A DNA stretch of 64,000 bases, from positions 43,204 through 107,203 of the IMG/VR virus record IMGVR_UViG_3300030433_001574. One strand, 5' to 3'. Shown here piece after piece: positions 28,566-58,459 of the stretch; position 1 is the first letter of the stretch; every line of letters starts with the position of its first letter. Position numbers and translations under genes: made by a program. Source of the DNA: a virus. Taxonomy: Duplodnaviria > Caudoviricetes. The notes under the pieces were generated by a model. That model was not told where the DNA came from, searched no databases, and saw only the letters and a list, made by a program, of their open reading frames with translations.

Positions 28566-28604
28566 ATTGTTCATCTCCTTTTTTTGTTGTTATTGTATGA
28601 GTCC

Positions 28605-40986: not shown

Positions 40987-41872
40987 CCATTACCCTTCGG
41001 TCAGCAAAAAATCTTGATGGGTCTTCAGCAATAAGTCGTTGAAGTGCTTCTTGAGCAGCCAACTCTTGAGCGTTCACTCTTTGTTTACCTCGTGCTAAAG
41101 CGCTGATAGCACTCATGAATGGCTTTCTACCTTCACCGAGATACGAAGGGTCTGAACGTGCTTCGATGTAGTCAGGGTTGTTCTTACCTTCTTGGAACAT
41201 CATTTCACCCATACCTTCAGCCGATGCCATCTCAGGATGCGTCATGGCTAACGCATTGGTAGCCTGAGTCCCAAAACGGTCAATCAAACTTTGACGTAGT
41301 GCTGGTGCTCGTTGCATAGCGGAGGCTACATCTGAAAACTGTCTTGCTGTTGCTTTATCACCTGCGTCTCTAAGAGAACTGGCTTCTTGGAACAAGTCGT
41401 CAATGCTGGCTTTTTTCAGAGCCTTTGCTTTCATTTCATTAAAGATAGCATCGTAAAGATTTTCTTCCTTAGTCTTAGCGGGAACAGATTCTTGCACTGC
41501 TTCAGGTTCAGGTTGATTTAACTTTTCAAACTCGTTATGCATCGCAAGCAAACGATTGAACTCGTCAGCCTGTTCAGGAGTCATACCAGCGTATGGGTCG
41601 CCGTGTTTTTCACGAATATCTTTTATCGGTTTAACCCCAACGTATCTATCAACATCTGCACCTAATTTTTCTCTGAAATCTTCTTGTCCTGATGCTTCGT
41701 CGGCTGTGCCATATTTTCCATAATGGTCATCTCTTGTGCGGATTCCTTTCTTTTTTGAATCAGGGTCAGCAGCGTGCATAGGGTCTTTGTCACCCTTCTT
41801 ACCCACTGAGATAATCAGCACCATACCGTGTTTCTTTCCGCCCATTTTCTTTTCTTTCATGGTATCATCCAT
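40970..41872 (-). CDS. Hypothetical protein, 300 aa
   Basis: Charged helical ORF overlapping both neighbours. Confidence 0.7.
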   Translation of the reverse strand: MDDTMKEKKMGGKKHGMVLIISVGKKGDKDPMHAADPDSKKKGIRTRDDHYGKYGTADEASGQEDFREKLGADVDRYVGVKPIKDIREKHGDPYAGMTPEQADEFNRLLAMHNEFEKLNQPEPEAVQESVPAKTKEENLYDAIFNEMKAKALKKASIDDLFQEASSLRDAGDKATARQFSDVASAMQRAPALRQSLIDRFGTQATNALAMTHPEMASAEGMGEMMFQEGKNNPDYIEARSDPSYLGEGRKPFMSAISALARGKQRVNAQELAAQEALQRLIAEDPSRFFADRRVMGEQGE

Positions 41873-43341
41873 CCTCTACTCGGTTTTCCAGTAATAATGT
41901 TGTCAAGACCCGGCAAGATGTCATCGAGGAGGACAATCGAGCCTTTGAACTCTTTTGTTCCCCAGTTTGCCAACGCCAGCGACATAGCCAAGTCATCATG
42001 CACGCCCACGCTTTCCAGTCTCCCGTTCTTTTGCATTCCAAACCTGTTCAATTCCTCTTCTAACTTGTGAGTAAACTGCCTACTTATTTCATTACCATAA
42101 GGTGTTTTGATTTGGCCCTGTTCAAAAGCCATGAGCAAAGACATGAAGAGGCTTTCCTTTCTTGTCTTGGTTGTCATGAAGGTTCGGATAGGAATATCTT
42201 CTCGCATATCCTTGAGTTCCATAGCAAACATACGCTGGAAGTTGTTGCCTTCAAGTTCAATCAAGTCGGGTTGGAATCGTTGATTCAATAGAATGATTTG
42301 TCGCTTCTGTGCTACAGAACTCATACCACGCTCATGCACAACGCCGACAATCTGTTTGACGTTATCATCAGGTAGAGTTCGTAGAACAGTCATAGCAGTA
42401 AAGTCAGCATTCTTGTCCGATGCAATCGCTGTGTCCCAGCCAATGAAATGCTGACCGAACAGACCCATGCTGTTGCCATCTTCATCATACTCGTGTTCAG
42501 CATGGTCAAGGAGAACCAACTCAGGGTCACGAGCCTTTTCCAATATCGTCATCGGGAACATACTGGCTACGTCATGGATTGGTTCACAGAGATACTCACG
42601 AGTAAACTGAATCGCTGGCATTGAAAGTCGTCGCTGGTCAAGTGCTTCAAGACTCCAACGCTGAGGCCACAGCGGTTCACCCTCTCGATTGATAGCGGGA
42701 TATGTCTCAACTCGGAACGTCTCTTTCTTTTCCAACTCAGCATACAAGTCATTGTAACTGAACGGAGTTCCTACCATCATCAGTCTACCTGTGTGGTGGA
42801 GAACTGGGAGCAATACACCATAGAACCAGTCGGCTGCTCGTTGCAACTCACTACCCGTTGTTCCCCACAGAATGTCATCACATACGACGACATCAGGGTG
42901 GAAACCACGAGTTCCTCCGCCAACCGACTTTGCCATGATACGGCTACCGTTGGTGAACTCAAAATAGGTCTTTCGCCACGGTATACCACCGGGCTTAAGA
43001 TGGTGCAAACAAGGTGCTCCGTCGATGTTGTTACGAATGAAACGCATGTGCTCCAGTGTCTGTTCCAATGAGTGACTGAACACCATGATGTGTGTGTTGG
43101 GTCGGAACGCCGCTATCCACAGAGCATACGACATGAAGAATACAGACTTACCGTGGTCACGAGACGCTTTGACACAGTAGTAACGATTCTCTTCCAAGCC
43201 CTCATCCCACTGAGCGTGGTGGTCAGCGTAGTCAAAACCCAACACTGTTTCAAAAAAATACTTGAAAGAGCGCTGAGACATTTTTCTGTCCATCTCAACG
43301 ATGAGTTCTTTCATTTGCTCTTCTTCTTCTCGCTTACCCAT
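41857..43341 (-). CDS. terL: Terminase large subunit
   Basis: Walker A ASRDHGKS, Walker B VVVCDD, coupling motif VGTP, RNase-H nuclease IGWDTA...DFTA and HDDLAMSLALA. Confidence 0.95.
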   Translation of the reverse strand: MGKREEEEQMKELIVEMDRKMSQRSFKYFFETVLGFDYADHHAQWDEGLEENRYYCVKASRDHGKSVFFMSYALWIAAFRPNTHIMVFSHSLEQTLEHMRFIRNNIDGAPCLHHLKPGGIPWRKTYFEFTNGSRIMAKSVGGGTRGFHPDVVVCDDILWGTTGSELQRAADWFYGVLLPVLHHTGRLMMVGTPFSYNDLYAELEKKETFRVETYPAINREGEPLWPQRWSLEALDQRRLSMPAIQFTREYLCEPIHDVASMFPMTILEKARDPELVLLDHAEHEYDEDGNSMGLFGQHFIGWDTAIASDKNADFTAMTVLRTLPDDNVKQIVGVVHERGMSSVAQKRQIILLNQRFQPDLIELEGNNFQRMFAMELKDMREDIPIRTFMTTKTRKESLFMSLLMAFEQGQIKTPYGNEISRQFTHKLEEELNRFGMQKNGRLESVGVHDDLAMSLALANWGTKEFKGSIVLLDDILPGLDNIITGKPSRGWMIP

Positions 43342-44462: not shown

Positions 44463-46795
44463 CAGACACCACCTACGCTTACTTTGACAACCTTGACAAC
44501 ATCAGTAGAAACATTGAGTCGCTTTGCAATTCGCTCCCAATCACCAGTGGCATGTGCTATTGAACGAACATCAACGGGCGTGAGGTCTACGCTCTTAGCA
44601 AGATAGTGCATACCACGACGGTCACTAACATTGATTGGTCGAGTCAATGCGTGCTTCATGATTTTGCTGTCGTTGCGAGCATCGTCCAACTGCATATCTT
44701 CCATAGCCTTCATGACTCTATCCATCGGAGAGAGTTCAGTCGGTTGAGACTTCATGTATTGAGTGAGCAAGCGTTGGCGTGGGTCGCCCATGAGTTGTTG
44801 GTAACGCTGCTCTTGAGGTGAAAGTTGCATACCCTGTCCTTGAGGCACTCTTGCGCCAGCGGCTTCTATGATTCTACGAAGCGATGCTGGGTCAGCCTGT
44901 CCGACACGGCTTCGTGCCGCTGCCATTTCAGCACTTTGCGGTGTGAAACCGGGTGCTCCCCGTTGAGGGACAGACGGAGGTAGCGTCGTCTGCTGAGGTG
45001 CTGGGGGAGCAACAGCAACCTCAGTGGGAGTAGGTTGTGGACGTGGAGCAGGTCGCTCAGTTGATGCAGTCGCAGCGGGTCTTGTAACCGATGCTCTTTC
45101 AACTGGGGCGAGTGCTACGTCGTGGTGATACGGAACGTGCTCAGGTAGGTTTTCAATAAGTTGTTCAGGATATTGCATGTAGCGAGAAGACAAACCAGTG
45201 GTCGGAAGCGACTCAGGCAACTGGCGACGGGTCTGATGACCAAACGCTTCGCTAAGTAAATCAGCCAAAGCCTGAGTTCCTTGTCTACGTTGCTCGACAG
45301 TATCATAACTTTGGAGATTCAAACCCATGTCTTGAATGATAGCAGCGTCGATGTTACCTTCAGCATCTCTTGGCATGTAGGCTCGTAACTCGCTGTCGTG
45401 CTCATCATGTGCTCCACTTAGCATGGCCTTAGCATAAAATTTAGCAGCGTTTTCGTGAGTCCCCAAACCTCGTGTTGGTCTATGTCCATCGAGCGTTTCC
45501 AAATGAGGGCCGGGAACAGCATGGCTTCGCATGTTGTCAAATCCAACCTCGTGGTCTTTTCCAAAGACTTCAAGGATGTGTTGAAACGCTCGCTTGCCCG
45601 GTCCGGGTCTTGCTTTTGACCCACTAATGATACGACCAAACAACATGTTGAAGGCTGGGGTTCGTGATAATTCGTTAATCATGTTTTCAGTGCTGGCTGG
45701 ACTTCGCAACACGGTTCTTAGGTTCATCATTGTATATTGAGGAGAGCCAGTTGTGCCGGGAGTTGTGTTAATCGGCACATCAACGTCAGGAATTTTATCA
45801 GGGTCAATGACCTTTAGCGCTTCAGCGATGTGAACTTTTGCGCTGTCGATTGAGTTTTTTGGCCCTGTCTGTTGGCGACCAGCCATCATATGCATAAAAT
45901 CAGGGGTGTGATTCATAACTTCCCAAGACTGGATTCCAGTGTGGGCCGCATTATGGGAAACACCGGGAGGAGCGTTGGTGATGTGTGTGCCGGGTAGCAT
46001 AAACCCTTGAGGCGTTTGGATGATAGCGTCACCACCTCGGCCACGAATACGACTACCACGAGGGTGCAAATCTTTGATGTCAATGTGAGGATTGTCAAGG
46101 AACTCAGCACCAACCAAGTCTTTGATACCAAGTGTTTCAAGTAGAATCTTCTGTAGATTGTGATTGTAAGGAACGGCGTAGGACTCAATCATAGCACCAA
46201 TTTTTTCGTTACGATTTGCACGATTGGTATAAGCAGTGATGTATTCTCCACTTTGAGCACGATGAGGTCGTGATGTTGGTTTTCGACCACCATATGGTGC
46301 TACTACGATTTTACGATGCTGCATGTCATCAACATCGGGAATATGGTGAAAACCGCTTTTGTCATCATGTTCAAGATTTGTCATCTCAATGGCACGCTGA
46401 ACAATGTTTCGACCAGTAAGTTGTCCCAACTCAGGATGGTCTTGACCAAGCAAACCGTTTTTCTCAAGAGCCTCACCAATAGCGTGTATCACACCGTCAA
46501 TTCCGTGATGATGTGATTCTCCATTATGGTCAAGGTAAACCATTTCATCGTGTTTACCTTTAACGAATTTACCGGGAATCAATTCACCCATACCAAAGTG
46601 TCCTGATGGGTGTGGCTTTGCCGCACCGTAGTGAGCGTAGACAGGAACGTCAGGCGTGTTTGGGTCAGGGTGTATTGCTTCAGGAGGTGGAGAAGTTTTC
46701 AGATACGGAGTAAGTCGCCCCGTCTCAGGATGAGGATAGTAACCGTAAACACCGTCACCTTTGAGAAGAAGTGATTTACGAACTAAGACATTCAA
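44462..46795 (-). CDS. Hypothetical 777-aa protein, C-terminal HTH-like segment
   Basis: Starts MNVLVRKSLLLKG; ends WERIAKRLNVSTDVVKVVK. Confidence 0.7.
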   Translation of the reverse strand: MNVLVRKSLLLKGDGVYGYYPHPETGRLTPYLKTSPPPEAIHPDPNTPDVPVYAHYGAAKPHPSGHFGMGELIPGKFVKGKHDEMVYLDHNGESHHHGIDGVIHAIGEALEKNGLLGQDHPELGQLTGRNIVQRAIEMTNLEHDDKSGFHHIPDVDDMQHRKIVVAPYGGRKPTSRPHRAQSGEYITAYTNRANRNEKIGAMIESYAVPYNHNLQKILLETLGIKDLVGAEFLDNPHIDIKDLHPRGSRIRGRGGDAIIQTPQGFMLPGTHITNAPPGVSHNAAHTGIQSWEVMNHTPDFMHMMAGRQQTGPKNSIDSAKVHIAEALKVIDPDKIPDVDVPINTTPGTTGSPQYTMMNLRTVLRSPASTENMINELSRTPAFNMLFGRIISGSKARPGPGKRAFQHILEVFGKDHEVGFDNMRSHAVPGPHLETLDGHRPTRGLGTHENAAKFYAKAMLSGAHDEHDSELRAYMPRDAEGNIDAAIIQDMGLNLQSYDTVEQRRQGTQALADLLSEAFGHQTRRQLPESLPTTGLSSRYMQYPEQLIENLPEHVPYHHDVALAPVERASVTRPAATASTERPAPRPQPTPTEVAVAPPAPQQTTLPPSVPQRGAPGFTPQSAEMAAARSRVGQADPASLRRIIEAAGARVPQGQGMQLSPQEQRYQQLMGDPRQRLLTQYMKSQPTELSPMDRVMKAMEDMQLDDARNDSKIMKHALTRPINVSDRRGMHYLAKSVDLTPVDVRSIAHATGDWERIAKRLNVSTDVVKVVKVSVGGV

Positions 46796-48660
46796 ACTCG
46801 CCCACTCCCTCTACCAACAAGAGCGCCGGGGTCAAGCCCGAAGTCTCGTGGTTCATTGTTTACATCTTCCGTAGCGCCTTCGTTTCGATTTGTTTGCTTT
46901 GGACTGTTGGCTGGATAATTTGGTAGTGTGCTCGCTGCACCAGCGGTGTCAGGTTCACCCTTACCCTTCTTTTTGCTGTCCTTGTCTTTCTTTTCACGCA
47001 TCAGTTCACGAATCTCTTTGAGAGCAATTCGCATCAATGCTGCTTGATATGCATTGGCTTTGAGAATGTCACTGTGTTGAGGAATGTCCTCACTCATTGT
47101 AATCATACTCGGCATCTTAGGTCGTGCTAAGTGTGGTCGCTTGAGTTGCGGTGGCACAATGCTTGGCGCACGAACTGGTCGAAGTCGTGGTCTTGGGACA
47201 CGAGGGTATTGGAGTGTGTTGGTCAAGCGACCACCACCCGTATCACCAGCGATATACGAGCGTTGGCTGTGACGCATGTGTGGTGTGTATACTGTTCTTA
47301 CACCGCCCAAGAGTTTACGAGCATCTTGTGAAGCGAGATAGGGTCTGTATTGTTGAGGGTCTTTTGATGGAGGTTGCTTGCTGGCAAGACCTCGGTGAGA
47401 GAACTCAACAGAAAGATGTGGCCTCATTAGCCCAGTTTTACGCCCCAGTGGTAGGTTACGACTGATGTTCTTGGAACGTCTTGACGTGATGTTTCGTGGG
47501 TCGCCTCCACCTTTTGGCTTCTCAAACTGACCAGTAGATGGTCGCCATTTAGCGTAGCCTTCTTTCTTGCGTCGTCGCTTTACGGAGCGCTTTGACTCTT
47601 TTTTTTTAATCGTGTCCGATTTGAGCAATTGCCAAGCGATGTCCATAGGCTCGCTCGCATATTTCATTTGAAAATTATGTTCACTTTGAGGTGTGGGTGT
47701 GAAAGGAGGTGCAAGTTGCTCGATAAATCCCACACCTTTAGGATAGGGGAATGCATCAAAAACAGATTCGTTATCAGGCATTATGTTGCGTAAATCTTTT
47801 GTTGCATTATTTTCAAACTCGACAGCATCTTTTATGTTGTCAAGGGTTAATCCTTGAGCAAAACGAGCCATAGCCTCACGCTCTCCTCCAAATTCGCTTC
47901 TTGCGTCTTTATAGGAATTGATGTAGTTTTGAGCCGCCTCCGCACCAGCATTTTCCAAAATATACTGATACACCTCATTTGGGTCTAATGGTTCTCCAAA
48001 GTATGTCGAATGGTCATGGTTAGAAACCTCATCATGAGTATCTGCTACTCTTTCACCAAACATCTCCTCAAGCATATATGCGGGAGGGTGATTCATACGA
48101 TAGTATTCAGCCAATCTATCCATAGCCCTTTTTCTTTCTTCATTTTTAAGTTCAGGATTATCGCCAGCAAATCTTGCTCGGTCTATCTCATAATCTGTCA
48201 TTTCTGACATATCACGCTTTAGCAAATTACTCCAAGCATTATCCATAGGCTCAGACATCTGAACCATCTGACCGCCAGCAGCACCCGGCCCTTTTGCTCC
48301 CATAGCAAGACTGGTAAGGAAACCACCAGCACCTGATGGCATTGTTTGATTTGCTGGATTATCAGTAGAACCACGAGGCTTGAACTTCTCCTCTTCCTCT
48401 TCTACTGGCTCATCAGGTTTTTCGCCATCAATACCAAGATGATGTCTACGGACTTTGATGTGACGGATTTTGTTGTCCTCTTTCTCTTCTCGTTCACGCT
48501 TGGCTTGCTTCTTGTCCTTGCGCTTTTCCTTGTCTTTGGCATCTTCGACACCGCTGGGTGGACGCTCATCTTCATGATTCGCCCTGAACATCTCGGAGGA
48601 TTCTGAGCGAGGATTATACATCCTCGTGTCAGAGGTTCGACCCATCATCCCCTCCGTCAT
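46792..48660 (-). CDS. Modular 622-aa protein with two EPMD.AW..LLK motifs
   Basis: Acidic, AT-rich and basic segments are separated by the motif. Confidence 0.7.
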   Translation of the reverse strand: MTEGMMGRTSDTRMYNPRSESSEMFRANHEDERPPSGVEDAKDKEKRKDKKQAKREREEKEDNKIRHIKVRRHHLGIDGEKPDEPVEEEEEKFKPRGSTDNPANQTMPSGAGGFLTSLAMGAKGPGAAGGQMVQMSEPMDNAWSNLLKRDMSEMTDYEIDRARFAGDNPELKNEERKRAMDRLAEYYRMNHPPAYMLEEMFGERVADTHDEVSNHDHSTYFGEPLDPNEVYQYILENAGAEAAQNYINSYKDARSEFGGEREAMARFAQGLTLDNIKDAVEFENNATKDLRNIMPDNESVFDAFPYPKGVGFIEQLAPPFTPTPQSEHNFQMKYASEPMDIAWQLLKSDTIKKKESKRSVKRRRKKEGYAKWRPSTGQFEKPKGGGDPRNITSRRSKNISRNLPLGRKTGLMRPHLSVEFSHRGLASKQPPSKDPQQYRPYLASQDARKLLGGVRTVYTPHMRHSQRSYIAGDTGGGRLTNTLQYPRVPRPRLRPVRAPSIVPPQLKRPHLARPKMPSMITMSEDIPQHSDILKANAYQAALMRIALKEIRELMREKKDKDSKKKGKGEPDTAGAASTLPNYPANSPKQTNRNEGATEDVNNEPRDFGLDPGALVGRGSGRV

Positions 48661-49058
48661 GAATTATCCCCCACGATATGATGTTCAAAACATTGTCGCA
48701 ACTTTTGCGCCATTTTTCTATAGAACGATGCTACTCTTGGACTGTCTTGGAATGCATGTGTCATGTTCTCAATTGTGTGCTCAAACTCTTCAAGCAAACG
48801 AGGAATGAGTTCGTAAGCAGGGAAAAATGTCACAGGGTCGTCATCCTCAAACACTGTCTCAAACGATTTCGCCAGCAACTTGAACAAGTCAGGTGGTGTA
48901 ACGTCCAACTCACCATAGTGTTCAAATCGCTTTGTGACACAACGGCAAAAATCAAGATACACTGGAACAGCGTTTTCAGAGATTGGTCGGTCACACTCTA
49001 CGAATGTAAACGCAGGGTGCGTCATTTGCAATAAGTCAGGAACTGGAACTGGCATCAA
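48657..49058 (-). CDS. Hypothetical protein, 133 aa
   Basis: Coupled to both neighbours; GGTGA RBS. Confidence 0.65.
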   Translation of the reverse strand: MMPVPVPDLLQMTHPAFTFVECDRPISENAVPVYLDFCRCVTKRFEHYGELDVTPPDLFKLLAKSFETVFEDDDPVTFFPAYELIPRLLEEFEHTIENMTHAFQDSPRVASFYRKMAQKLRQCFEHHIVGDNS

Positions 49059-49738
49059 TTCATATCACCTGCGTGTTCCAATAACGACTCACGGATTCTC
49101 GCCCATGAGTCAGGGCTTTCTTTTCCAAGTTCGACTTTGAGAATGTTAATCGTGTTATTGACTTGACTGTTCTCAGATGTAGGACTCCATTGTTCGTTCA
49201 TCTTTAGCAAGTCCTTTATTGACTCTCTGACTTCTTTGTGCAGTGACACTGCATCTTTGACGAAACCATCTTCATGAACACTGCCCTCATTGAGCAGTTC
49301 AGACAATTTATGGTTGAGCAATTCGACGTTTGACCTGAGTGCATTTATCTCTTCTCCTACGACTAATGTTATTTCAGCAGCGGCGCTTCTTTGAACTAAC
49401 GGTTGAAAGTGATGTTTCATGTGATGGTATACCGATGCTTCAGAGATGCCAAGTTCTTCAGCAATAGCCTCTGACTCAGCACCGTCATTGAAGAATCGAC
49501 GCTCAAAGTCGGCTCTTTCAACGTGAGCGCATACCTTGCATTGAGGATTTGATGCCATGTGGTATTGACCCATGTGATTGCGAAAGTGGCGGTCTGTCGT
49601 ATTGAGTCGCCAGCCCATGTCTTTGTCGAGTTGTTTTGGTGATATTTCACCATCCAGTAGTCCTTTTTCTAAGTCAGCACGACTCGGATGCTGGCACAAA
49701 GGGCAAGACCTTTTTGTGATAGCACCGCCCTCCGCCAT
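49055..49738 (-). CDS. Probable terminase small subunit (two CxxCxH...HxxxH Zn/HTH repeats plus coiled coil)
   Basis: CPLCQHP...HFRNHM and CKVCAH...IAEELGISEASVYHHMKHH; heads the packaging/structural operon. Confidence 0.65.
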   Translation of the reverse strand: MAEGGAITKRSCPLCQHPSRADLEKGLLDGEISPKQLDKDMGWRLNTTDRHFRNHMGQYHMASNPQCKVCAHVERADFERRFFNDGAESEAIAEELGISEASVYHHMKHHFQPLVQRSAAAEITLVVGEEINALRSNVELLNHKLSELLNEGSVHEDGFVKDAVSLHKEVRESIKDLLKMNEQWSPTSENSQVNNTINILKVELGKESPDSWARIRESLLEHAGDMN

Positions 49739-49797: not shown

Positions 49798-50073
49798 ATG
49801 CTCCCACCATACGAGAGAGTTCCAAAACAACCTCTCAAGAAACGTGGAAAAGACTTGCTCAAGGCTTCAAAAGACGCACTGCAAGGTCGTAGAGTTTCAA
49901 CGTCAGAATACATGGAGCGACTGGACAAATGCTACAGTTGTCCTTACATGCAAAAACGAATGGGGACTTGCCAACTCTGTAGTTGCGTTATGAAAATCAA
50001 AGCCCTCGCACCCTCGGTTGGGTGTCCAATAGGAAAGTGGTTACCGAGTGATTCGGGAGTAAAGCGTGGTTAA
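49798..50073 (+). CDS. Small Cys-rich zinc-binding protein (DUF6171-like)
   Basis: ERLDKCYSCP...TCQLCSCVMKIK...CPIGKW, a pattern common in aquatic viruses; divergent from TerS. Confidence 0.7.
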   Translation: MLPPYERVPKQPLKKRGKDLLKASKDALQGRRVSTSEYMERLDKCYSCPYMQKRMGTCQLCSCVMKIKALAPSVGCPIGKWLPSDSGVKRG

Positions 50074-50280
50074 GAAAATAAGCGCTCCAAAGATGCCTAC
50101 AACGAAAACGCTAACGTCTCCGCTACTCATTTCATCTCCTTTGAAAACCAAAATAGACACACCAGCGATAATCACAGAGATGAACTGAACCATTATCATC
50201 TCAACAATGATGTTTCGACTCGGAGCAAAAATCGAACTGCTCGCCTGACTCAATTTTATTCCATAATCACTTGGTTGCAT
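50041..50280 (-). CDS. Small two-TM membrane protein
   Basis: Two hydrophobic helices; GAGGTGA RBS. Confidence 0.7.
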   Translation of the reverse strand: MQPSDYGIKLSQASSSIFAPSRNIIVEMIMVQFISVIIAGVSILVFKGDEMSSGDVSVFVVGIFGALIFLTTLYSRITR

Positions 50281-50289
50281 TCTATCACC

Positions 50290-50955
50290 TCAGTTTCTTG
50301 GTAGCCCAATAAGACCACGAGCAACGCTACCAATACCGCTACCCACTTTTTGCATTGTTCCTTCATCAGCCATAGCCGCTGCCAAAGCACCACCCATCAT
50401 TGACTGTTGAGACATAGCCATAATTTGCTGACGTTGCATTTCAGCCTCTTGGAATTTTTGATTGCTCTGAGCCGTCATGTTGTTGAGAATCATGCTAACA
50501 TTCTCAGCGCTCAGTGTTTGTAAATCAGATGGCAGTGTAGCAGGGTCAAGTTTCATGACACCAGTATCTTCGTCCAATGAGAATGAGGCGTTTTTCAATA
50601 TGTTGAGTAAACTAAGGCTGGTTGTAGCGGCAACCAACTCTATGAGTGTTTGAAGCCCACCATCTCTGATGAAACGATGAATTGGGTTTTGTGATTGTAG
50701 CAAAGCCGACAAAAGTTCCATCTCACTCGGCGGAGCAAACTGTCCGTTTTGCATCATCATTTGTTGTTGCGGAGTCATACCCATACCACCCATCATTCCA
50801 CTCATGAATGGATTTGATTGCTGCTGTTGCTGAGCACCAAGAGAAAAACCGTTTTGAGCACCAGTGCCTGTGGTTATCTGACTAATGCTACCGCCACCTG
50901 TTTGAGACAGGTTAAAACCACTTTGCTGAGGTTGTTGGTTACCAAAGTTGAACAT
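50290..50955 (-). CDS. Protein with Q/G/M/F low-complexity N-terminus
   Basis: MFNFGNQQPQQSGFNLSQTGGG...NPFMSGMMGG; GGAGG RBS. Confidence 0.75.
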   Translation of the reverse strand: MFNFGNQQPQQSGFNLSQTGGGSISQITTGTGAQNGFSLGAQQQQQSNPFMSGMMGGMGMTPQQQMMMQNGQFAPPSEMELLSALLQSQNPIHRFIRDGGLQTLIELVAATTSLSLLNILKNASFSLDEDTGVMKLDPATLPSDLQTLSAENVSMILNNMTAQSNQKFQEAEMQRQQIMAMSQQSMMGGALAAAMADEGTMQKVGSGIGSVARGLIGLPRN

Positions 50956-50959
50956 CGTA

Positions 50960-51892
50960 TCAAACCTCCCCAGTGCCTAATCCACCATCAAGGTTCTGTT
51001 GCATTTTAGCGTTTTCAACATTAAGCAACTCTTGAAACGCTTGCGTCGGCATGTTCATTTGTTGCAACTCCATTTGGAAGATACGCAAATCAAAAACCAC
51101 CATCGTAACGTCGTTCTGTCCAGTTGCTGGATTTGCATAATGAAGGATATTGATGCCCTTTGTTTTACCTGAATCTCTTTCCAACTCAGCAAAAAATGGT
51201 TCATACTTCTGTAGCATGGCTGGTGTAGGGTCGTTTTTCTTGACAGATGAAATAGGAACTGTCACAATTGACACACCTCTTTTCACTTTATCACGAAGGC
51301 GATTTGGATTCATCTCGTTTTGTTTGTCCTCTTCGGCCTCCCACTTGTTCAAAAGATGGTAAAGATGCATATGCTCAGGACAGTATGTGCCACGCATTTT
51401 CTTACCACTGGTAACTCTGTCCTGAGCGATAAATGCTTCAGGCTGCCCTGTTACTGGGTTTTGCCAATACATCTCCCATAGAGAGCGACCTGTTTCTTCA
51501 TCGCTGATTTTCATGTAGAGATTATCATGTTGAATCAAATTTGCACAGTTACACCCATCGACAACGCACGTTCCCGTATCTTTGTTGTAACGATACTTTC
51601 GACCTAACGCCCATCGGAACGGGTTTATCCAAGAACGCTTTGCTGGTTGGAGAAGTTTGTATGCTTGCTTGATGTCTTTACGACGAGCCTTCTTTGGGTC
51701 AGGATGACGTGATGGGTAAAAATTGACTTTGGGAACTTCGATGTTTTGAGCAGCGGCAACCTCTTGCATACCTTGTTGAGCCATCAACATCTCTTGAAGA
51801 GCCGCCTGAGTAAGTTGATTGTTACCTTGTGCAGCGAGTATAGCAAGTTCGGCTTCAGTTAGATTCTGTTGAGGTCTGTTCCATGACATCAC
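50960..51892 (-). CDS. Hypothetical 310-aa protein with possible Zn site
   Basis: CVVDGC...YCPEH; Q-rich termini. Confidence 0.7.
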   Translation of the reverse strand: MMSWNRPQQNLTEAELAILAAQGNNQLTQAALQEMLMAQQGMQEVAAAQNIEVPKVNFYPSRHPDPKKARRKDIKQAYKLLQPAKRSWINPFRWALGRKYRYNKDTGTCVVDGCNCANLIQHDNLYMKISDEETGRSLWEMYWQNPVTGQPEAFIAQDRVTSGKKMRGTYCPEHMHLYHLLNKWEAEEDKQNEMNPNRLRDKVKRGVSIVTVPISSVKKNDPTPAMLQKYEPFFAELERDSGKTKGINILHYANPATGQNDVTMVVFDLRIFQMELQQMNMPTQAFQELLNVENAKMQQNLDGGLGTGEV

Positions 51893-52086
51893 GCTATCAC
51901 GACCTGCTCAGTCGTAGGAGTCATGACTACAACAATGTGTCCCTCTTGAACGACAAATTTCCAATCTACGCTGTCACCAGCGGTCAAGCCAAAATGCTCA
52001 ACAATCCACATTGGCACAGTTGTTCTGAGACTACGACTACCGCCACCAGTAGAGACGAGTGTTGTTGAAGAGTTCTTGCCTGTCAT
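51889..52086 (-). CDS. AbrB/MazE/SpoVT-family DNA-binding protein
   Basis: SLRTTVPMWIVEHFGLTAGDSVDW swapped-hairpin signature. Confidence 0.8.
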   Translation of the reverse strand: MTGKNSSTTLVSTGGGSRSLRTTVPMWIVEHFGLTAGDSVDWKFVVQEGHIVVVMTPTTEQVVIA

Positions 52087-52141
52087 AATTACACCGAAAC
52101 CATTGTTATTGAAAAGGCTACCTATGGGGTCATTTTTTGGG

Positions 52142-52885
52142 TCATGAGGTAAGTAGACTCACCATTGTCTTCTCAACATTCCATCCAATTCTTGTTGCCA
52201 TAAACGACCTGCGAGTGGGAATACCTGCTTTCTGTAACCTGATTAAGTCATCTCTGAACGGGTCGAATATCTTATGTTCACCTATGCGACCATCGTGCCA
52301 AAGTTTTGAAGCGGTTTCATCAAAGAAACGGTCAGCCTTGTTTGCAACCAGCATGATAACTCTTGGATGATACTTTCTTCCCTTAAGTCTCGACCAAAGA
52401 GAACGATAGCGATAATTTCGTTTAATGAGGCAATCAACAAGATAACGAAACCCTGCTATTTGCTGAAGACCTTCATCTCCTCCTTTGAAGGCTCGATGGT
52501 CGAACATGTAAACAATGGCCTCGCATTTACGAGTTACCATGTCTTCAATCCAAAGATTCCAAAAACGCTCTTGTCCTCCTATGTCGGCTGAATAAACAAC
52601 TCGCTTTTCGCCTTGCCAAGATACTCTCTTTCTCGTTGGCTTTGGCATTTTGAATTTACCAATTTTGAGAATACGAGAGTGTGTTGTTCGCTCGTCTTCA
52701 GGTATCTCTTCCATTTCACCGGGCGTGGTGAGATAACGGTCAAGCGTTGTCTTACCAACCATTGGTGCTCCATAAACACCAACTCTTCGTGGCTTATACG
52801 AGTTGTAAAGATTCTGACCCCACATCGCTGCGCCTACTAAGGCTGTGCCACCTGCGTCTACCATCAATCCCACCACATGAGCCAA
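52142..52885 (-). CDS. Ras-superfamily (Arf/Rab-like) small GTPase with hydrophobic N-terminus
   Basis: G1 GAPMVGKTT, G2 T, G3 DIGGQERF, G4 NKAD, G5-like MAT. Confidence 0.88.
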   Translation of the reverse strand: MAHVVGLMVDAGGTALVGAAMWGQNLYNSYKPRRVGVYGAPMVGKTTLDRYLTTPGEMEEIPEDERTTHSRILKIGKFKMPKPTRKRVSWQGEKRVVYSADIGGQERFWNLWIEDMVTRKCEAIVYMFDHRAFKGGDEGLQQIAGFRYLVDCLIKRNYRYRSLWSRLKGRKYHPRVIMLVANKADRFFDETASKLWHDGRIGEHKIFDPFRDDLIRLQKAGIPTRRSFMATRIGWNVEKTMVSLLTS

Positions 52886-53121
52886 TTGACAAGTCGTTCC
52901 AACTTATCAACAGTCCATTCAACGGTGTTCTCATAAACGCTAAATTCTGTATTGTGAAACTCAATACCGCTGACAACAATTGCTGTAATGAACGAAGCAA
53001 GAACAGTTTTTACCCAACCCCATGCTCTTTCGTAGGTTGTGTCTACTGTATTGGCTATGTGAATAGCACGAAGCGTGCTTTCAGTAGCATCATCGGAAGG
53101 AGTGCGAAAGATACGACCCAT
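52864..53121 (-). CDS. Small single-TM membrane protein
   Basis: AWGWVKTVLASFITAIVVSGI; overlaps the GTPase start. Confidence 0.7.
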   Translation of the reverse strand: MGRIFRTPSDDATESTLRAIHIANTVDTTYERAWGWVKTVLASFITAIVVSGIEFHNTEFSVYENTVEWTVDKLERLVNWLMWWD

Positions 53122-53130
53122 GCATACGCC

Positions 53131-53712
53131 TCACTCTTTCTTGAGATAACGCTTGTCAGGAGTTCCATCTTTCTTAAGTGGGACTTCCTCATCTATACCG
53201 AGTGTCAATGGTTGTTGCACCTTTGCTTCATGTGTTGGAATACGACTACCATCGAAGACCGAAGAGCCACCGCCTCTGTTGTCAAACGCACCTATCATAG
53301 ATGGAGAACCACCTTGAACACCCCAACTTGGAGGCATCTTACCGGGGTTTTCCTCCATCCAACGCAGTTCACGTTCAAGTTGTGCTTCTTGCATACGCAT
53401 CTCCATCTCCGCCCTACGGTTATCGAACTGCTGTTGCATCATACGATACTGGTGGCTTCGCTGTTTCTCGATGTTACCATGTCGAACTCGTTCTTGCAGG
53501 TTTTGCTCAAAGAACATTTTGAAGAAGTAGTAAGCAATACCTTGAACAAAGAATGCACCCATAGCATAGGTGAATCCGTTAATCCAAACGCTGTCTTGCT
53601 TTAACCAAACTTCAGCGTCAAAGATACCAATGGCTACTCCAACAAGTGTGCTCTGAGCCAAAATTAGCCCCATAAGCCTGATTTCTGCTTCGTGATGGTC
53701 TGTGTTGTCCAT
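53131..53712 (-). CDS. Two-TM membrane protein with coiled coil and KKDGTPDKRY tail
   Basis: LMGLILAQSTLVGVAIGIF and GFTYAMGAFFVQGIAYYFF, then a heptad-rich segment. Start taken at MDNTD (track start 53748 is an alternative). Confidence 0.7.
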   Translation of the reverse strand: MDNTDHHEAEIRLMGLILAQSTLVGVAIGIFDAEVWLKQDSVWINGFTYAMGAFFVQGIAYYFFKMFFEQNLQERVRHGNIEKQRSHQYRMMQQQFDNRRAEMEMRMQEAQLERELRWMEENPGKMPPSWGVQGGSPSMIGAFDNRGGGSSVFDGSRIPTHEAKVQQPLTLGIDEEVPLKKDGTPDKRYLKKE

Positions 53713-53850
53713 AATGTCCACTGACTTGTCCACTGTAAGGGTCACCATAAAGGTTACTGGGTGTGTTGTCCGAGTTGTCCGTTGTATTGTTTATACATTT
53801 TACAAGAATAAAGTATTTGTCTATATTAGACATTAGACAAGTCGGACAAC
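53704..53850. repeat. Cluster of RGACAW direct and inverted repeats upstream of the GTPase operon
   Basis: gttgtcc-ataatgtcc-actgacttgtcc, gttgtcc-gagttgtcc, then ttgtcta and inverted agacatt-agacaag-tcggacaac. Confidence 0.6.
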
Positions 53851-54624
53851 TTAGAATGGGTAAGGATGCATCAACTCTTTTCTGTCTTCGCCACCCTGCT
53901 CTTGTTTGAAGTCATCCAATGAGGTAAGGAGAGCCTGTGCAATCTTCTTATCTTGCTCGTCCATTGGGCCATTCATCAAGTTTCGTAGCAACTCAAGGTC
54001 GCCTCTGATACCCTTTGTTAGAGGGCGCTTCGTCCCTTTGTCCTTGAAATGTCGTGCTCGATTGTCGTGCTCATCTTCTACTGTCAATTTACCACCTTCG
54101 GTGTGTGATATGTCTCGGTGTGAGTGGTCACCATACATCCCACGTCTACGTCGTTCTCTGTTTAACTCTTCTCGATACTTGACTCGTTCAGGGGATGCTT
54201 CGTATTGTTTGTCATACTCCAACTTATGTCGCTTGGCTTCAGGCGACTTTCGCTCTTTACGAATCACACCAACGCCTAAGTCCATTGGTTCACCCGTCAT
54301 TATATCTTGCCAATAAGGGTCATACGACACCTTATCCGTTGCAACATTGGCAAAAATGGGTGGAGACTCCTTTTCACGATAATCAATTTGGGCTTGAGTT
54401 AAGGGAAAATAATCAGTATCTCTTTGTCTTATTTCTCGTTCTGTTGCGAGTTCATCCATTGGTATTTCATCTTCGGATGTTGCATGAGGAAAATATCGTC
54501 TTAACAACTTTGGTCGTGCAGACGATTTTGGACTAAGCAACATGTTCAAATCAAAATTATCTATGAGTGCATGAGGACGAGCCTCTTTGAGCAAGTGCCA
54601 TGCCTCATTGAAAAAATCACTCAT
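53851..54624 (-). CDS. Modular protein with HNH-like segment
   Basis: REELNRERRRRGMYGDHSHRDISH...EHDNRARH resembles short phage HNH-like proteins; N-terminal FNEAWHLLK motif. Confidence 0.6.
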   Translation of the reverse strand: MSDFFNEAWHLLKEARPHALIDNFDLNMLLSPKSSARPKLLRRYFPHATSEDEIPMDELATEREIRQRDTDYFPLTQAQIDYREKESPPIFANVATDKVSYDPYWQDIMTGEPMDLGVGVIRKERKSPEAKRHKLEYDKQYEASPERVKYREELNRERRRRGMYGDHSHRDISHTEGGKLTVEDEHDNRARHFKDKGTKRPLTKGIRGDLELLRNLMNGPMDEQDKKIAQALLTSLDDFKQEQGGEDRKELMHPYPF

Positions 54625-54625
54625 A

Positions 54626-54940
54626 TCAACAATTCCATCTTTTCAGTGCAGCACCTTTTGGTGTGAGTTTACCACCCTTGCTTGTTGGGCCTTTGCTTCC
54701 ACTCATTCTTGCACAGAATGACTTACGACGCTTGGCTCTCTTGCTACCGGGCTTGAGTTTGCTTGGCTTGGTGGTCACAGGTGGCTTGAGGTTTGCACCA
54801 GTTTCACGCTTAAACTTAGCACGCCCTTTGGCATTCAGCCCACCTTTCTTGTGATGCCGTTTTGGATTGTAACCGTGAAACGGCTTCGACTTCTTTTTTC
54901 CTTTTTCAATAACGTCCCATGCTTCATCAAATGCACTCAT
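54626..54940 (-). CDS. Small basic protein (DUF6321-like)
   Basis: GGLNAKGR...ANLKPPV...RRKSFCARM...ALKRWNC. Confidence 0.7.
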   Translation of the reverse strand: MSAFDEAWDVIEKGKKKSKPFHGYNPKRHHKKGGLNAKGRAKFKRETGANLKPPVTTKPSKLKPGSKRAKRRKSFCARMSGSKGPTSKGGKLTPKGAALKRWNC

Positions 54941-55251
54941 CGTATTACACCAACCATCTTTACTATCGTAGGCTTTCCACCCACGCCTTGTTTTTTACTG
55001 CGCTTGCGTTTTGTCGCTGCACGCTTTTGCCCCTCAGACATTGAGCCTGAAGTTTTTGGAGTCTTATCGCTAACTTTTACACTGGGTCTACACTTTGGAT
55101 AGCCCTTGCTTGATGTCTTTGCTTTGCTTCGGCCACAGGGAGGATGCTTGCCGTCTTTGTCTTTACGACTAACATCGACCCACTTTTCTTTGAACCATCG
55201 GTTCAAGTCCTTGATAACAAGAACGTCGTGGCATGTGCATCGGTCACTCAT
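54937..55251 (-). CDS. Small basic protein (DUF5872-like)
   Basis: LNRWFKEKWVD...CGR...YPKCRP. Confidence 0.7.
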   Translation of the reverse strand: MSDRCTCHDVLVIKDLNRWFKEKWVDVSRKDKDGKHPPCGRSKAKTSSKGYPKCRPSVKVSDKTPKTSGSMSEGQKRAATKRKRSKKQGVGGKPTIVKMVGVIR

Positions 55252-55263
55252 CTCTTTACCTCC

Positions 55264-56304
55264 TTATCCGAATAATTCACCCAATGAACGTGAATAAGGA
55301 TGGTCGCTGTAGTCCCAGTTATACAGGTCTTGTAGAACGTCATTTGTCGAATAAGGAACTCCATCTTTTGTTCTGAAATACGGGTAATTTTCTCTGTGTC
55401 TTGGGTGCTCGACATCATACTCAGGCAAAAATCGTTTGTCATCGAGTCGTGTCTGTGTTTGATAACCTTGAGCCATATCTCTCTTCATATTTGTAATTCT
55501 TTCATCTTCAGGTTCACCAAACATCGGCGCTACACCATAATCAGGTTGCAAGTCACCCCAACCCGCTGCTCGATACTTTTCCCTCTCTTTCGATTGTTTT
55601 ATTGGGTTGGCTTGATAGAGGTATTTTTGCGATGTTTCTATGTCATCGTAAGGCAGTGTTAATTGCTCAAAATCTATGGAAGGCGGTAAACGACGTTGAA
55701 AACTTTCATGAAACGGCTGCGAGTTTGCGTTTCTTGAAGTCGAAAGAATGTTCATGTTGTTGTGTAGTATCGTATTGAGAAGTTGTTGATAGTAACCCTT
55801 TCGCTGATGCTCACGAGGGGTTCTTCCATGCAAACCAACCAACATTGGTGATGCGTTTTTTACATGTTTGCCGTATCTGTTATTTTCACGGCCTACTTCT
55901 GTTCCCGCAACACGAGACAACTTGTTACCTTCTTCATCCTGAAGTTCATATGTCACTCCTTGTCCGTATTCGTCACTGTAAAGGTCAGGAATACGAACAA
56001 CTTTTGCTGGAGTTGGGCGAGGCGATGTGTCCATTCGTTTTTTGTAGCCTTCTTCAAATGTCTTATCTGCTATTTCAGCATTCAAAAAGCCATCATTAAC
56101 ATTTTCTAAACCCTCGTTCATAAAACGCAACTGTCGCAGTGGATAAATACCCATTAGTCGTTCAAGATTGGTTTGACCTCTGTTTACATCGTAGTGTCCA
56201 GTTTCCCTTTCCCTTTTCATTCGTCGTCGTAATTCACGAATATCATTTACTGAAAATACAGGGTCGCCTTTCAGCAAAGACCAAGCGGCGGTAAAGGCTG
56301 TCAT
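55264..56304 (-). CDS. GNAT-like acetyltransferase (paralog A)
   Basis: TPREHQRKGYYQQLL acetyl-CoA motif A; start MTAFTAAWSLLK at 56304. Confidence 0.65.
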   Translation of the reverse strand: MTAFTAAWSLLKGDPVFSVNDIRELRRRMKRERETGHYDVNRGQTNLERLMGIYPLRQLRFMNEGLENVNDGFLNAEIADKTFEEGYKKRMDTSPRPTPAKVVRIPDLYSDEYGQGVTYELQDEEGNKLSRVAGTEVGRENNRYGKHVKNASPMLVGLHGRTPREHQRKGYYQQLLNTILHNNMNILSTSRNANSQPFHESFQRRLPPSIDFEQLTLPYDDIETSQKYLYQANPIKQSKEREKYRAAGWGDLQPDYGVAPMFGEPEDERITNMKRDMAQGYQTQTRLDDKRFLPEYDVEHPRHRENYPYFRTKDGVPYSTNDVLQDLYNWDYSDHPYSRSLGELFG

Positions 56305-56305
56305 T

Positions 56306-56467
56306 TCAAAACACACCTACCATTTTTTTGATACTCTTTTGCTTATCCATCAAACGATAACAAGGACACTTCGGTGCTTTTGCTGAGCACTGTCTACCTT
56401 CAATCATGCAAACGCAGGGCGTATCTTTTGTCCCGCCGCAACAACATGAAGGCTTTTTGAGTTTCAT
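56306..56467 (-). CDS. Cys-rich small protein, 53 aa (MKLKKPSCCCGGTKDTPCVCMIEGRQCSAKAPKCPCYRL...KMVGVF)
   Basis: ATGA-coupled to the upstream gene; stop is 2 nt before the next ATG; 8 Cys. Confidence 0.65.
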   Translation of the reverse strand: MKLKKPSCCCGGTKDTPCVCMIEGRQCSAKAPKCPCYRLMDKQKSIKKMVGVF

Positions 56468-56910
56468 TTCTTTTTCCCCTTCTTGCGGAACTTACCCTTG
56501 CAGTATTGCACCGCCCAACCGTTGGCGTATGCTGATGGGTAAACCTTGAATTTGCGTTTGGCAGCGGCCTTGCCTTCGGGACATAGTTTCTTTTCAAGAG
56601 AGTCCCATGCTATGTCAAAAGGTGTAAGTTCGCTTGCTAATTTCACATCATCATCTCCAAGTTTTGATGGATGCACCATACCATGCACGTCGTATTGCTG
56701 AGCGCAGTCCATGCACATGTGGTGCGTGTAGTCCTTTGTTAAAGTTGGGTTAGCGTATCGAACTGAAATAACAGCATTGGGATTTGGACAAAGCGTGCAA
56801 CTTTCTCGTAAATCAGCGCCTGAGAAAACAGACTTCATCTTAACAGGTTCGTCAAAGACGTTTTTCCAAAACAAGTCGCTTATCATGGTATCACCCAAAC
56901 ATATCCTCAA
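56464..56910 (-). CDS. Zn-finger segment plus basic AKRKFKVYPSAYAN module
   Basis: CTLC...CMDC, then PFDIAWDSLEK, then KLCPEGKAAAKRKFKVYPSAYANGWAVQYCKG. Confidence 0.65.
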   Translation of the reverse strand: MRICLGDTMISDLFWKNVFDEPVKMKSVFSGADLRESCTLCPNPNAVISVRYANPTLTKDYTHHMCMDCAQQYDVHGMVHPSKLGDDDVKLASELTPFDIAWDSLEKKLCPEGKAAAKRKFKVYPSAYANGWAVQYCKGKFRKKGKKK

Positions 56911-58459
56911 GATATTGACGGCTCATTCTAATTGATTCGTCCATTTTCTGACGAGTTTCTTCTTGTGAATCTTTGAGTGTTTTGACGTTTGGGTCAAATC
57001 TTGGCTCAGTGAGTTTTGATTGTCTGTAAAAGCGAACACTTGGACTTGTAGGGTCAGTGTTATCTTGAACTTGTATGGACGAGCGAGGAGAAACAGGATT
57101 TAATCGTGAAGGTAATGGTTTATCCACAGTTCCAAACATTGGGTATTGGCTACCGAACATTGGTTTCAAGTCGCCCCAATCCCCTGTTACATCCATATCT
57201 TTGAAAGCCTGTTTTTCAGATTCAGGGTCAAAGCCGTAACGATACATGTTCATCGTTCTATCTCTTGATTCAGTAAGTGTTTTTGATTTGTCTTCCTCTC
57301 TTCCAGCCACTTGTATATTCTTTGGTAGTCGCTGTTGAAAACTTTCATGAAACGGCTGAGACATATGTGGGTTTCTATTATTCGATACAACGCCTATTTT
57401 ATTTTGAAGTAGGGTATCGAGTAAATTTCTGTAGTAACCCTTTCTCTGATGAACTGGATAAGTAACCGCATCTAACCCACCTATGGTGTTTGTTACAGTA
57501 GGAATTCGGCGTGCGTCTTTGTCATGAAGATTGATTCCACTTACTTTTGAGTATTCGTTACCTTCATCGTCCACCAATGCGAATCTACGATGGTCATTCC
57601 CTATGCTCCTAACTTCAACTTTTGTTGGTGTTGGTTGTCCTTCTTTAAATCGCATACGTTGTTCGTAACCAGTTCTAAAATCTCTTCTTGCTTCGCCAGC
57701 AGGTATCAGTCTTGTGAATGTAGAATTGCGATTATCAACTTTCATATCATCTCTGTTTCGTATAGCATCACGAAGATTACGATTTAACGGTAAGGGCATT
57801 GGAAGTGTTGATTGTGGCTTGAGTGACTGTGAGTTAAACCGAGCAGGGCTTGTTTCTAATTGCTCCATGGCATCCTTGTTTCTATTTTCAATCTTTCTTT
57901 GAACTCTCTCAAATTTACTATCAATCCTGTTTTCTTCGTCTTCGTTACGCATTTTCAAAAGTCGCCAAGCCATATCCATTGGCGCTGCTTTTCCAACTTC
58001 TGAGCCACGACGAGCCATCTCAATGGCACGCTGTTCCTGTGCTTGTTTGCGTTGTTGGCTGCTTGCCAATGATTGCTGTGCAAACTGCATCGCTTGATTT
58101 TGCTTTTTCTTTGGATTGAACCCGCTGGCCTCTTGTGTTGGCTCAGGCGCTGATGGAGTTTTAGGCATTTCAGGCTCAGGCATCTCAGGCGCTGGCGCTG
58201 AAGGCATCGACTCGACAGCCTCGCTCGCTGGGCTTGAGGCAAGTGGGCCTTCTTTTTTCCCAGTTATCAGGTTCTTAGCGGCTGGGACAAGTTTTTCTCC
58301 AATCTTGTTTCTAAGCGCCAAACGCTTTGTGTTGAGTTTAGCCCCTGCGCTAAGCACTTTACCACCAAGCGCTCTTGCTCCTTGCAGAGCAACACCAAGA
58401 AACTTCTCAATGTCGTCGGGTGAATCCCACGGCACAAAGTCGTAGTTTTCACTCGGCAT
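56891..58459 (-). CDS. Modular protein with GNAT-like domain (paralog B)
   Basis: TYPVHQRKGYYRNLL and SQPFHESFQQRLP, shared with 55264-56304. Confidence 0.7.
   Translation of the reverse strand: MPSENYDFVPWDSPDDIEKFLGVALQGARALGGKVLSAGAKLNTKRLALRNKIGEKLVPAAKNLITGKKEGPLASSPASEAVESMPSAPAPEMPEPEMPKTPSAPEPTQEASGFNPKKKQNQAMQFAQQSLASSQQRKQAQEQRAIEMARRGSEVGKAAPMDMAWRLLKMRNEDEENRIDSKFERVQRKIENRNKDAMEQLETSPARFNSQSLKPQSTLPMPLPLNRNLRDAIRNRDDMKVDNRNSTFTRLIPAGEARRDFRTGYEQRMRFKEGQPTPTKVEVRSIGNDHRRFALVDDEGNEYSKVSGINLHDKDARRIPTVTNTIGGLDAVTYPVHQRKGYYRNLLDTLLQNKIGVVSNNRNPHMSQPFHESFQQRLPKNIQVAGREEDKSKTLTESRDRTMNMYRYGFDPESEKQAFKDMDVTGDWGDLKPMFGSQYPMFGTVDKPLPSRLNPVSPRSSIQVQDNTDPTSPSVRFYRQSKLTEPRFDPNVKTLKDSQEETRQKMDESIRMSRQYLEDMFG

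Follow-up and report, generated by a model that had tools for sequence, protein, structure and literature searches.

A conserved, virus-specific gene cassette centred on a divergent Arf-like small GTPase in a tailed virus of marine archaea

In haloarchaea the formation of vesicles needs the Arf-like GTPase ArvA (OapA), which carries an N-terminal amphipathic helix, together with its operon partners ArvB and ArvC (PMC10927574). The machinery by which archaeal tailed viruses leave their hosts has been described as completely uncharacterised (PMC10791045). Here we describe a gene cassette centred on an Arf-like small GTPase in the IMG/VR virus record IMGVR_UViG_3300030433_001574, a complete linear genome of 107,203 bp whose right-hand 64 kb (positions 43,204 to 107,203 of the record) constitute the window analysed. 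The genome is that of a complete magrovirus, a tailed virus of Marine Group II/Poseidoniales archaea (phylum Thermoplasmatota). Magroviruses rank with the most abundant viruses in surface waters of the ocean (PMC5434244). A prior reading of the window from its sequence alone (hereafter the sequence-only reading) had singled out a small GTPase in a membrane-protein operon, and seven co-oriented open reading frames (ORFs) are indeed present there on the minus strand:

53131..53748, minus strand: gene A, 205 amino acids (aa), with a membrane N-terminal half, a coiled coil rich in Arg, Gln and Glu, and a variable tail
52864..53121, minus strand: gene B, 85 aa, with a soluble conserved N-terminus (MGRIFKTP...), one transmembrane (TM) segment and a Trp-rich C-terminus
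52142..52864, minus strand: gene C, the GTPase, 240 aa, virus-specific and Arf-like, with insertions in switch I and after helix 3
51889..52086, minus strand: gene D, 65 aa, a putative SpoVT/AbrB-like swapped-hairpin DNA-binding protein
50960..51892, minus strand: gene E, 310 aa, a soluble orphan that always follows the GTPase, with a partly conserved Cys/His cluster
50290..50955, minus strand: gene F, 221 aa, with a Gln/Met/Gly-rich disordered N-terminus, a helical middle and a Gly/Met-rich C-terminal tail
50041..50280, minus strand: gene G, 79 aa, with two TM segments, a short FKG loop and a short basic C-terminus

Gene C encodes a very divergent Arf-like small GTPase with intact nucleotide-binding motifs, which is predicted to switch with GTP. 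In an alignment of 23 members of its family, with identity down to 31%, the residues G32, G37 and K38 of the P-loop, D94 and G97 of the DxxG motif, and N175 and K176 of the NKxD motif are invariant, while T39, T40, G96, W105 and D178 are at least 90% conserved. The motifs picked out by the sequence-only reading (DIGGQERFWNLW, AIVYMFD and LVANKAD) and the P-loop GAPMVGKTT are real, and G1 (GxxxxGK[ST]), G3 (DxxG), G4 (NKxD) and a recognisable SA-like G5 occur in order on a Ras-like fold. Its claim of a complete G1-G5 set holds for the conserved G1, G3, G4 and G5 but is too strong for G2: an insertion of ~25-30 residues in switch I prevents the assignment of an invariant Thr there, and the candidate Mg-binding residues T61 and T77 vary across the family. 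In switch II (DIGGQERFWNLW) the DxGGQ motif is accompanied by a conserved Trp 7-8 residues downstream, and a few divergent members have His, the residue found in Sar1, or Ala at the position of the catalytic Gln. The ORF is open from a TTG at 52885, which was ruled out as the start by homologue lengths of 237-241 aa; these favour the ATG at 52864, giving 240 aa and overlapping the stop codon of the upstream 1-TM gene B by one base (TGATG).

AlphaFold2 models the GTPase with confidence (pLDDT 85, pTM 0.84): residues 4-23 are predicted to form an N-terminal helix, after which comes a Ras-like core that has additional helices. The N-terminal ~24 residues form a conserved, nearly uncharged helix in all members, with a hydropathy of 0.3-1.2 and a hydrophobic moment of 0.3-0.6, as against 0.36-0.53 for the helices of ArvA, and this helix aligns with the N-terminal helix of the Asgard protein GerdArfR1. 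The hydrophobic N-terminal helix reported earlier is thus conserved and moderately hydrophobic, but its hydropathy is too low for a full TM segment. No longer, fused form of the GTPase was found, which is itself weak evidence.

The proposal of a virus-encoded Arf-like small GTPase is backed by the family profile, by the fold and by the neighbours in the ESM Atlas. When compared with the PDB, the family profile retrieved GerdArfR1 (8OUN) first (E 3.6e-6) and Arl8A/B next (about 1e-4), with Rab33B, G-alpha-s and KRas ranking behind them. In fold comparisons Arf family proteins (ArfR, Arl8, Arf1/6) were the nearest solved structures, and the closest five clusters in the ESM Atlas consist entirely of viral proteins, followed by Arf-like proteins of Chloroflexota, eukaryotic ARFRP1 and proteins of Methanobacteriota. 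The single-sequence Pfam search gave weak matches to Roc (E 3e-3) and MMR_HSR1 (0.017). The gathering threshold of the Pfam Arf family (PF00025) is reached by none of the 23 members, three of which match it at all (best E 0.0048), and across the members the Roc and MMR_HSR1 matches are as weak as those to PF00025. Since no member reaches the Pfam Arf threshold, we do not assign bona fide membership of the Arf family. NCBIfam yielded only the generic small_GTP domain, below threshold. The automatic annotation of IMG labels some members "GTPase SAR1 family protein"; in the searchable magrovirus papers the GTPase is nowhere mentioned and the cassette is not described.

The phyletic distribution of this family is viral. 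An exhaustive HMMER scan of 1.84 billion representatives retrieved 76 proteins, all of them belonging to the viral GTPase family, which comprises more than 465 clusters at 90%. Most of these derive from marine metagenomes, Tara among them, and their contigs reach about 125 kb; a relative is encoded on 302 IMG/VR contigs. Only one of 201 Poseidoniales genomes contains a relative, namely a single-cell genome with a viral contig, as against none of the 200 others. Five matches in nominally cellular genomes were considered as cellular homologues and rejected, as they are viral contigs with the same gene order (three in bacterial metagenome-assembled genomes, MAGs, and one in an Asgard MAG). The short magrovirus contigs found in bacterial MAGs (L091, L093 and L094; Parvibaculum, Maricaulis) and in the Asgard MAG (L092) represent binning contamination, and such misbinned contigs could mislead inferences on host or gene transfer. 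A tblastn search of the GenBank phage collection with the GTPase gave no match, and its nearest folds in BFVD are the Rab, Ran and Ras proteins of giant viruses, in keeping with the earlier remark that small GTPases are unusual in tailed viruses. No GC anomaly was seen at the cassette. The absence of any relative from the 200 other genomes of the host order, together with the lack of a GC anomaly, indicates that the block is not a recent host-derived insertion, which the sequence-only reading had named among the findings that would speak against it, but is old in the virus lineage.

Conservation of the neighbourhood was counted in the 80 closest loci, and profile HMMs derived from them served to recover more divergent loci. 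Genes A, B, E, F and G and a downstream helix-turn-helix (HTH) gene occur in 78-80 of the 80 loci with identical order and orientation. Gene A is present in 78 and also in the divergent loci L004, L088, L094 and L095, and genes B, F and G are present in all 80 as well as in divergent loci. The order A-B-GTPase-E-F-G is retained down to 37-40% GTPase identity (L004, L094, L095), one of these loci being a 106-kb contig in a Poseidoniales single-cell genome, and in this respect the genes proposed to form a module are co-conserved. The GTPase is encoded on each of the three independent long contigs spanning the region, and it is the best conserved gene of the neighbourhood (median identity 74%). 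Within the cassette start and stop codons overlap, and the genes are tightly or translationally coupled.

The module is nevertheless smaller than the seven genes first proposed. Because three divergent loci keep A, B, the GTPase, E, F and G but lack AbrB, the core comprises six genes. Gene D occurs in 71 of the 80 close loci and is absent from L004, L094 and L095; it is a lineage-specific insert outside the core cassette. Its match to Pfam MazE_antitoxin/AbrB (PF04014) scores 23.1 bits against a cut-off of 24.7 (E 7e-5) and is accompanied by a weak PHROG match, so that the AbrB regulator of the sequence-only reading stands as an AbrB-like match lying just under the Pfam threshold. What emerges is a conserved, virus-specific cassette of six genes, in which three of the five partners of the GTPase are small membrane proteins. 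One of the divergent loci, the 59-kb ENA contig L004, has an extra gene of 252 aa and no known family between B and the GTPase (5241-5999); it was considered as a paralogue of the GTPase, to which comparison shows it to be unrelated. The same contig also carries glycosyltransferases and a serine recombinase.

The membrane topologies of the partners largely agree with those first suggested. One clear TM segment is predicted for gene B and two for gene G, as had been proposed. Gene A had been described as a 2-TM coiled-coil protein, of which the coiled coil and one clear TM segment are upheld, the second TM segment being aromatic-rich; its look-alikes in the ESM Atlas are solely viral. The size and topology of G fit a class II or pinholin-like holin; no holin family was matched and no endolysin was found. 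Gene E is the second best conserved protein of the cassette, with 772 clusters that are all annotated as hypothetical, and no solved fold resembles its model (pLDDT 74) beyond the noise level. The "Zn-site" earlier ascribed to it is not a family-wide feature, as only one Cys is shared by all members and L004, the most divergent of them, has lost the C/H/H/H cluster. Searches of PHROGs and PADLOC with the cassette proteins gave no match except the weak PHROG match for the AbrB-like protein. The earlier statement that no holin, endolysin, roadblock or MglB gene is recognisable agrees with scans of the cassette by Pfam, PHROGs and PADLOC and of the 20 largest other ORFs by Pfam, small ORFs elsewhere in the window being unscanned.

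The window represents the half of the genome that runs in the direction of morphogenesis. Nearly all of its genes lie on the minus strand, and those that identify the virus are the following:

41857-43341, minus strand: large terminase TerL
40132-40986, minus strand: HMG-CoA-lyase-like gene
37112-38878, minus strand: portal
28605-29990, minus strand: prohead protease
27390-28574, minus strand: HK97-type major capsid protein (MCP)

A gene for a tail-tube-like protein is also present in the window. The remaining half of the genome is oppositely oriented, and DNA-metabolism genes (SNF2 helicase, ERCC4 nuclease, exonuclease-like) are found there. This genome agrees in layout, size and the HMG-CoA lyase gene with the description of the Magrovirales (PMC10768690). 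We took as criteria for this group a genome of about 90-110 kb, the HK97 set of MCP, protease, portal and TerL, an HMG-CoA lyase, an own replisome and two opposite gene blocks, and found ~107 kb, MCP, protease, portal, TerL, the HMG-CoA-lyase-like gene, two opposed gene blocks and an association with Poseidoniales. The last comes from a related virus (MCP 63% and TerL 46% identity) that constitutes a 106-kb contig in the single-cell genome of a Poseidoniales archaeon; because this virus fills a contig of such a genome, Marine Group II hosts are supported. The region downstream of the tail genes holds one uninterrupted reading frame (window 3-17657, minus strand), which exceeds 5,885 codons and continues past the end of the window.

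The proximity of the cassette to packaging genes, noted earlier, is evident in its location just upstream of the genes for a TerS-like protein and TerL on the same strand. The product of the first of these (window 49055-49738, minus strand), 227 aa long, combines a CxxC pair at its N-terminus with an HTH_20 domain and is retained after the cassette in all lineages; it is probably a small terminase or a late regulator, its PHROG match to TerS having an E-value of only 0.019. Between gene G and this HTH gene lies a Cys-rich ORF of 91 aa on the plus strand (window 49798-50073), with a weak match to DUF6171 (E 7.5e-5), which is kept in 50 of the 80 related loci, in every case antisense to the cassette block. 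Several otherwise unrelated proteins encoded on the minus strand at window positions 46792-48660 and 53851-58459 share an N-terminal or internal AWxxLK-like motif (EAWHLLK, MAWRLLK, IAWQLLK).

The presence of small membrane proteins around a GTPase with a hydrophobic helix suggests that the cassette probably acts on the host membrane. With distinctly less assurance, at somewhat under even confidence, we read it as a GTP-switched system for membrane remodelling or permeabilisation that serves egress. The GTPase would be an Arf/Sar-type switch, whose GTP state would release the N-terminal helix into the cytoplasmic membrane of the host; in the Arf family a two-residue register shift of the interswitch couples the binding of GTP to such a release. 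Once docked there it might meet the viral membrane proteins A, B and G, with E and F acting as soluble regulator, effector or scaffold of the GTPase, and the assembled complex could deform or permeabilise the membrane. The purpose would be to free progeny from a host cell without a murein wall, G (perhaps also A) forming the pore or lesion and the GTPase serving as trigger or organiser. The context is compatible with this, as the cassette directly precedes the TerS-like and TerL genes and no holin or endolysin is recognisable among the scanned proteins. A stronger form of the proposal, in which the cassette supplies the egress machinery so far missing for archaeal tailed viruses and the Arf-like GTPase times or organises rupture by holin-like proteins, must at present be regarded as rather unlikely.

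The same location might instead point to an accessory role in assembly or packaging, with the GTPase anchoring or timing procapsid assembly or packaging at the membrane, or with the proteins being virion or ejection components. The HTH/TerS-like gene and the TerL-portal block follow immediately downstream on the cassette's own strand, and genes flanking the cassette on both sides share the AWxxLK-like tag, which may mark proteins targeted to the capsid. However, the cassette proteins themselves have no conserved tag of this kind, three integral membrane proteins are hard to fit into a tailed virion, and no tailed virus is known to require a small GTPase for assembly. We accordingly hold such a role to be improbable.

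Upstream of gene A lies a further element that bears on the timing of the cassette:

53766..53849, minus strand: palindromic promoter/operator-like element of ~85 nt, with two TTGTCY boxes, an AT-rich TATA-like core and two GGACAA boxes

The final GGACAA box ends ~20 nt before the ATG of gene A. The element is the densest cluster of GGACAA/TTGTCC in the 107-kb genome, with 5 copies in 150 nt against 0.14 expected. The four-box pattern occurs twice in the genome, before gene A and at 259-351, at the head of the DNA-metabolism block, and a looser third copy is found at ~34.7 kb (about 34700-34790), between the ERCC4 nuclease gene and a 480-aa ORF. Each of the three copies lies directly upstream of a co-directional gene. 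Related viruses keep the architecture of the element before gene A, whereas the exact boxes vary. An interpretation of the GGACAA boxes as operators of AbrB wherever AbrB occurs was rejected, as the exact boxes are confined to the nearest relatives. We read the element as a putative shared class of promoter/operator, and a position some 20 nt from a start codon would fit this better than a replication origin. On this view the cassette would be separately controlled and would share its regulation with two units of the replication half.

Small viral membrane proteins in phages often serve superinfection exclusion or host takeover. The cassette, possibly an early or middle unit with its own operator and, in this lineage, an AbrB-type regulator, might comparably act at the membrane to block the entry of competing viral DNA or the transport, secretion or motility of the host. 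Genes of this sort are, however, usually variable and dispensable, whereas the cassette is present in every informative genome and forms the most conserved block of its neighbourhood. As PADLOC likewise gave no matches, exclusion or takeover would be a surprising outcome.

The relationship of the viral GTPase to ArvA was assessed with ArvA, ArvB and ArvC sequences from Thermoplasmatota genomes. With an hhalign probability of 94%, the two families align locally over 47 columns, which run from the last part of the helix through the P-loop into the beginning of switch I. Five ArvA proteins obtain 15-19 bits with the viral family profile, from a match restricted to the N-terminal 45 residues, as against 29.9 for ArfR. 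The G3 motif reads DTPG in ArvA and DIGGQ in the viral GTPase. ArvB (OapB, PF09846) has no match in the viral genome, and E and F show no profile similarity to ArvB or to the Zn ribbon protein ArvC. ArvB was found in 74 of 151 genomes sampled from the host phylum but in none of 101 Poseidoniales genomes, and the Poseidoniales hosts thus appear to be without the ArvA/ArvB vesiculation system altogether. A homologue of ArvA captured from the host was rejected as the source of the viral gene, the host order having neither ArvB nor any relative of the viral GTPase. To judge from these sequence comparisons the viral GTPase is not an ArvA, and the virus carries no copy of the host system.

A functional parallel with ArvA is a different matter. 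The cassette might be a module for vesiculation or compartment formation, which produces invaginations, vesicles or a membrane-bound platform for replication or assembly without lysis. The requirement of an Arf-like protein with an amphipathic N-terminal helix for vesicle formation in haloarchaea (PMC10927574), along with the local similarity described above, would be in keeping with such a role, and as the host order is without ArvB the virus may supply a function that its host lacks. The element common to two DNA-metabolism units also fits, and the Gln/Met-rich protein F could serve as a scaffold. The ArvB and ArvC partners are nonetheless missing from both cassette and genome, the G3 motif and the profile scores set the GTPase apart from ArvA and nearer to ArfR, and tailed viruses have no known need for internal membranes. 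This makes vesiculation a rather unlikely explanation, though the likeliest of the alternatives to egress.

Several points likewise weigh against membrane remodelling or permeabilisation for egress. No fold of a GTPase-activating protein (GAP), a guanine nucleotide exchange factor (GEF) or an effector is recognisable in gene E, and a holin-like topology is common among small membrane proteins. The N-terminal helix of the GTPase is without the basic face of the classical amphipathic helices of Arf and ArvA. As the switch-I Thr is unidentifiable and the catalytic Gln is replaced in some members, the mechanism of hydrolysis may differ. The palindromic element is common to two units of the DNA-metabolism half and not to structural genes; because of this sharing, early or middle expression fits at least as well as late lysis. 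More than any other point, the shared element speaks against a role confined to late lysis, and it slightly weakens a late or lytic interpretation.

Irrespective of which role applies, a conserved membrane cassette centred on a GTPase offers a concrete, clonable candidate for egress or another membrane-directed step of infection. It also widens the range of Arf-like switches beyond eukaryotes, Asgard ArfR and archaeal ArvA to an old, virus-specific lineage, which bears on the evolution and spread of such switches. Were the egress proposal to prove true, prokaryotic viruses would have a third way out of the cell in addition to holin-endolysin systems and virus-associated pyramids, and Arf-type membrane switches would operate outside the Asgard-eukaryote lineage.

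Among known systems, the lysis cassette of phage lambda is located just upstream of the terminase genes. The lambda S/R/Rz and pinholin S21 cassettes thus resemble the magroviral one in placing small proteins with one or two TM segments just upstream of the terminase genes; they differ from it in that the latter includes no endolysin or spanin and shows no sequence similarity to known holins. To our knowledge, a GTPase is part of no known holin system. With ArvA the viral system shares a small GTPase from the archaeal world, an N-terminal membrane helix and operon partners, ArvA itself acting on the cytoplasmic membrane. SR-beta of the signal recognition particle (SRP) receptor similarly combines an Arf-like fold with a hydrophobic N-terminal anchor, but scores below Arf and Arl proteins, and no SRX/longin-like partner was recognised in the cassette. 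The Rab, Ran and Ras proteins of giant viruses (Nucleocytoviricota) are likewise virus-encoded members of the Ras superfamily and the nearest viral structures; they are recent captures of eukaryotic genes, whereas the family described here has no cellular counterpart in the host order and resides in a tailed archaeal virus. The best profile and structural matches are with the Arf family (Arf1, Arf6, Arl1, Arl3, Arl8, and the Asgard proteins GerdArfR1, 8OUN/8OUM, and HodArfR1, 8OUK; bioRxiv 10.1101/2024.02.28.582541), with which the viral GTPase shares the helix right before strand 1, the GKTT P-loop, DxGGQ with the accompanying Trp, NKxD and the absence of a C-terminal lipidation motif. It departs from that family in its length of 240 aa versus about 180, in its insertions in switch I (about 25-30 residues) and after helix 3, in its uncharged helix, and in the placement of its gene in an operon with membrane proteins.

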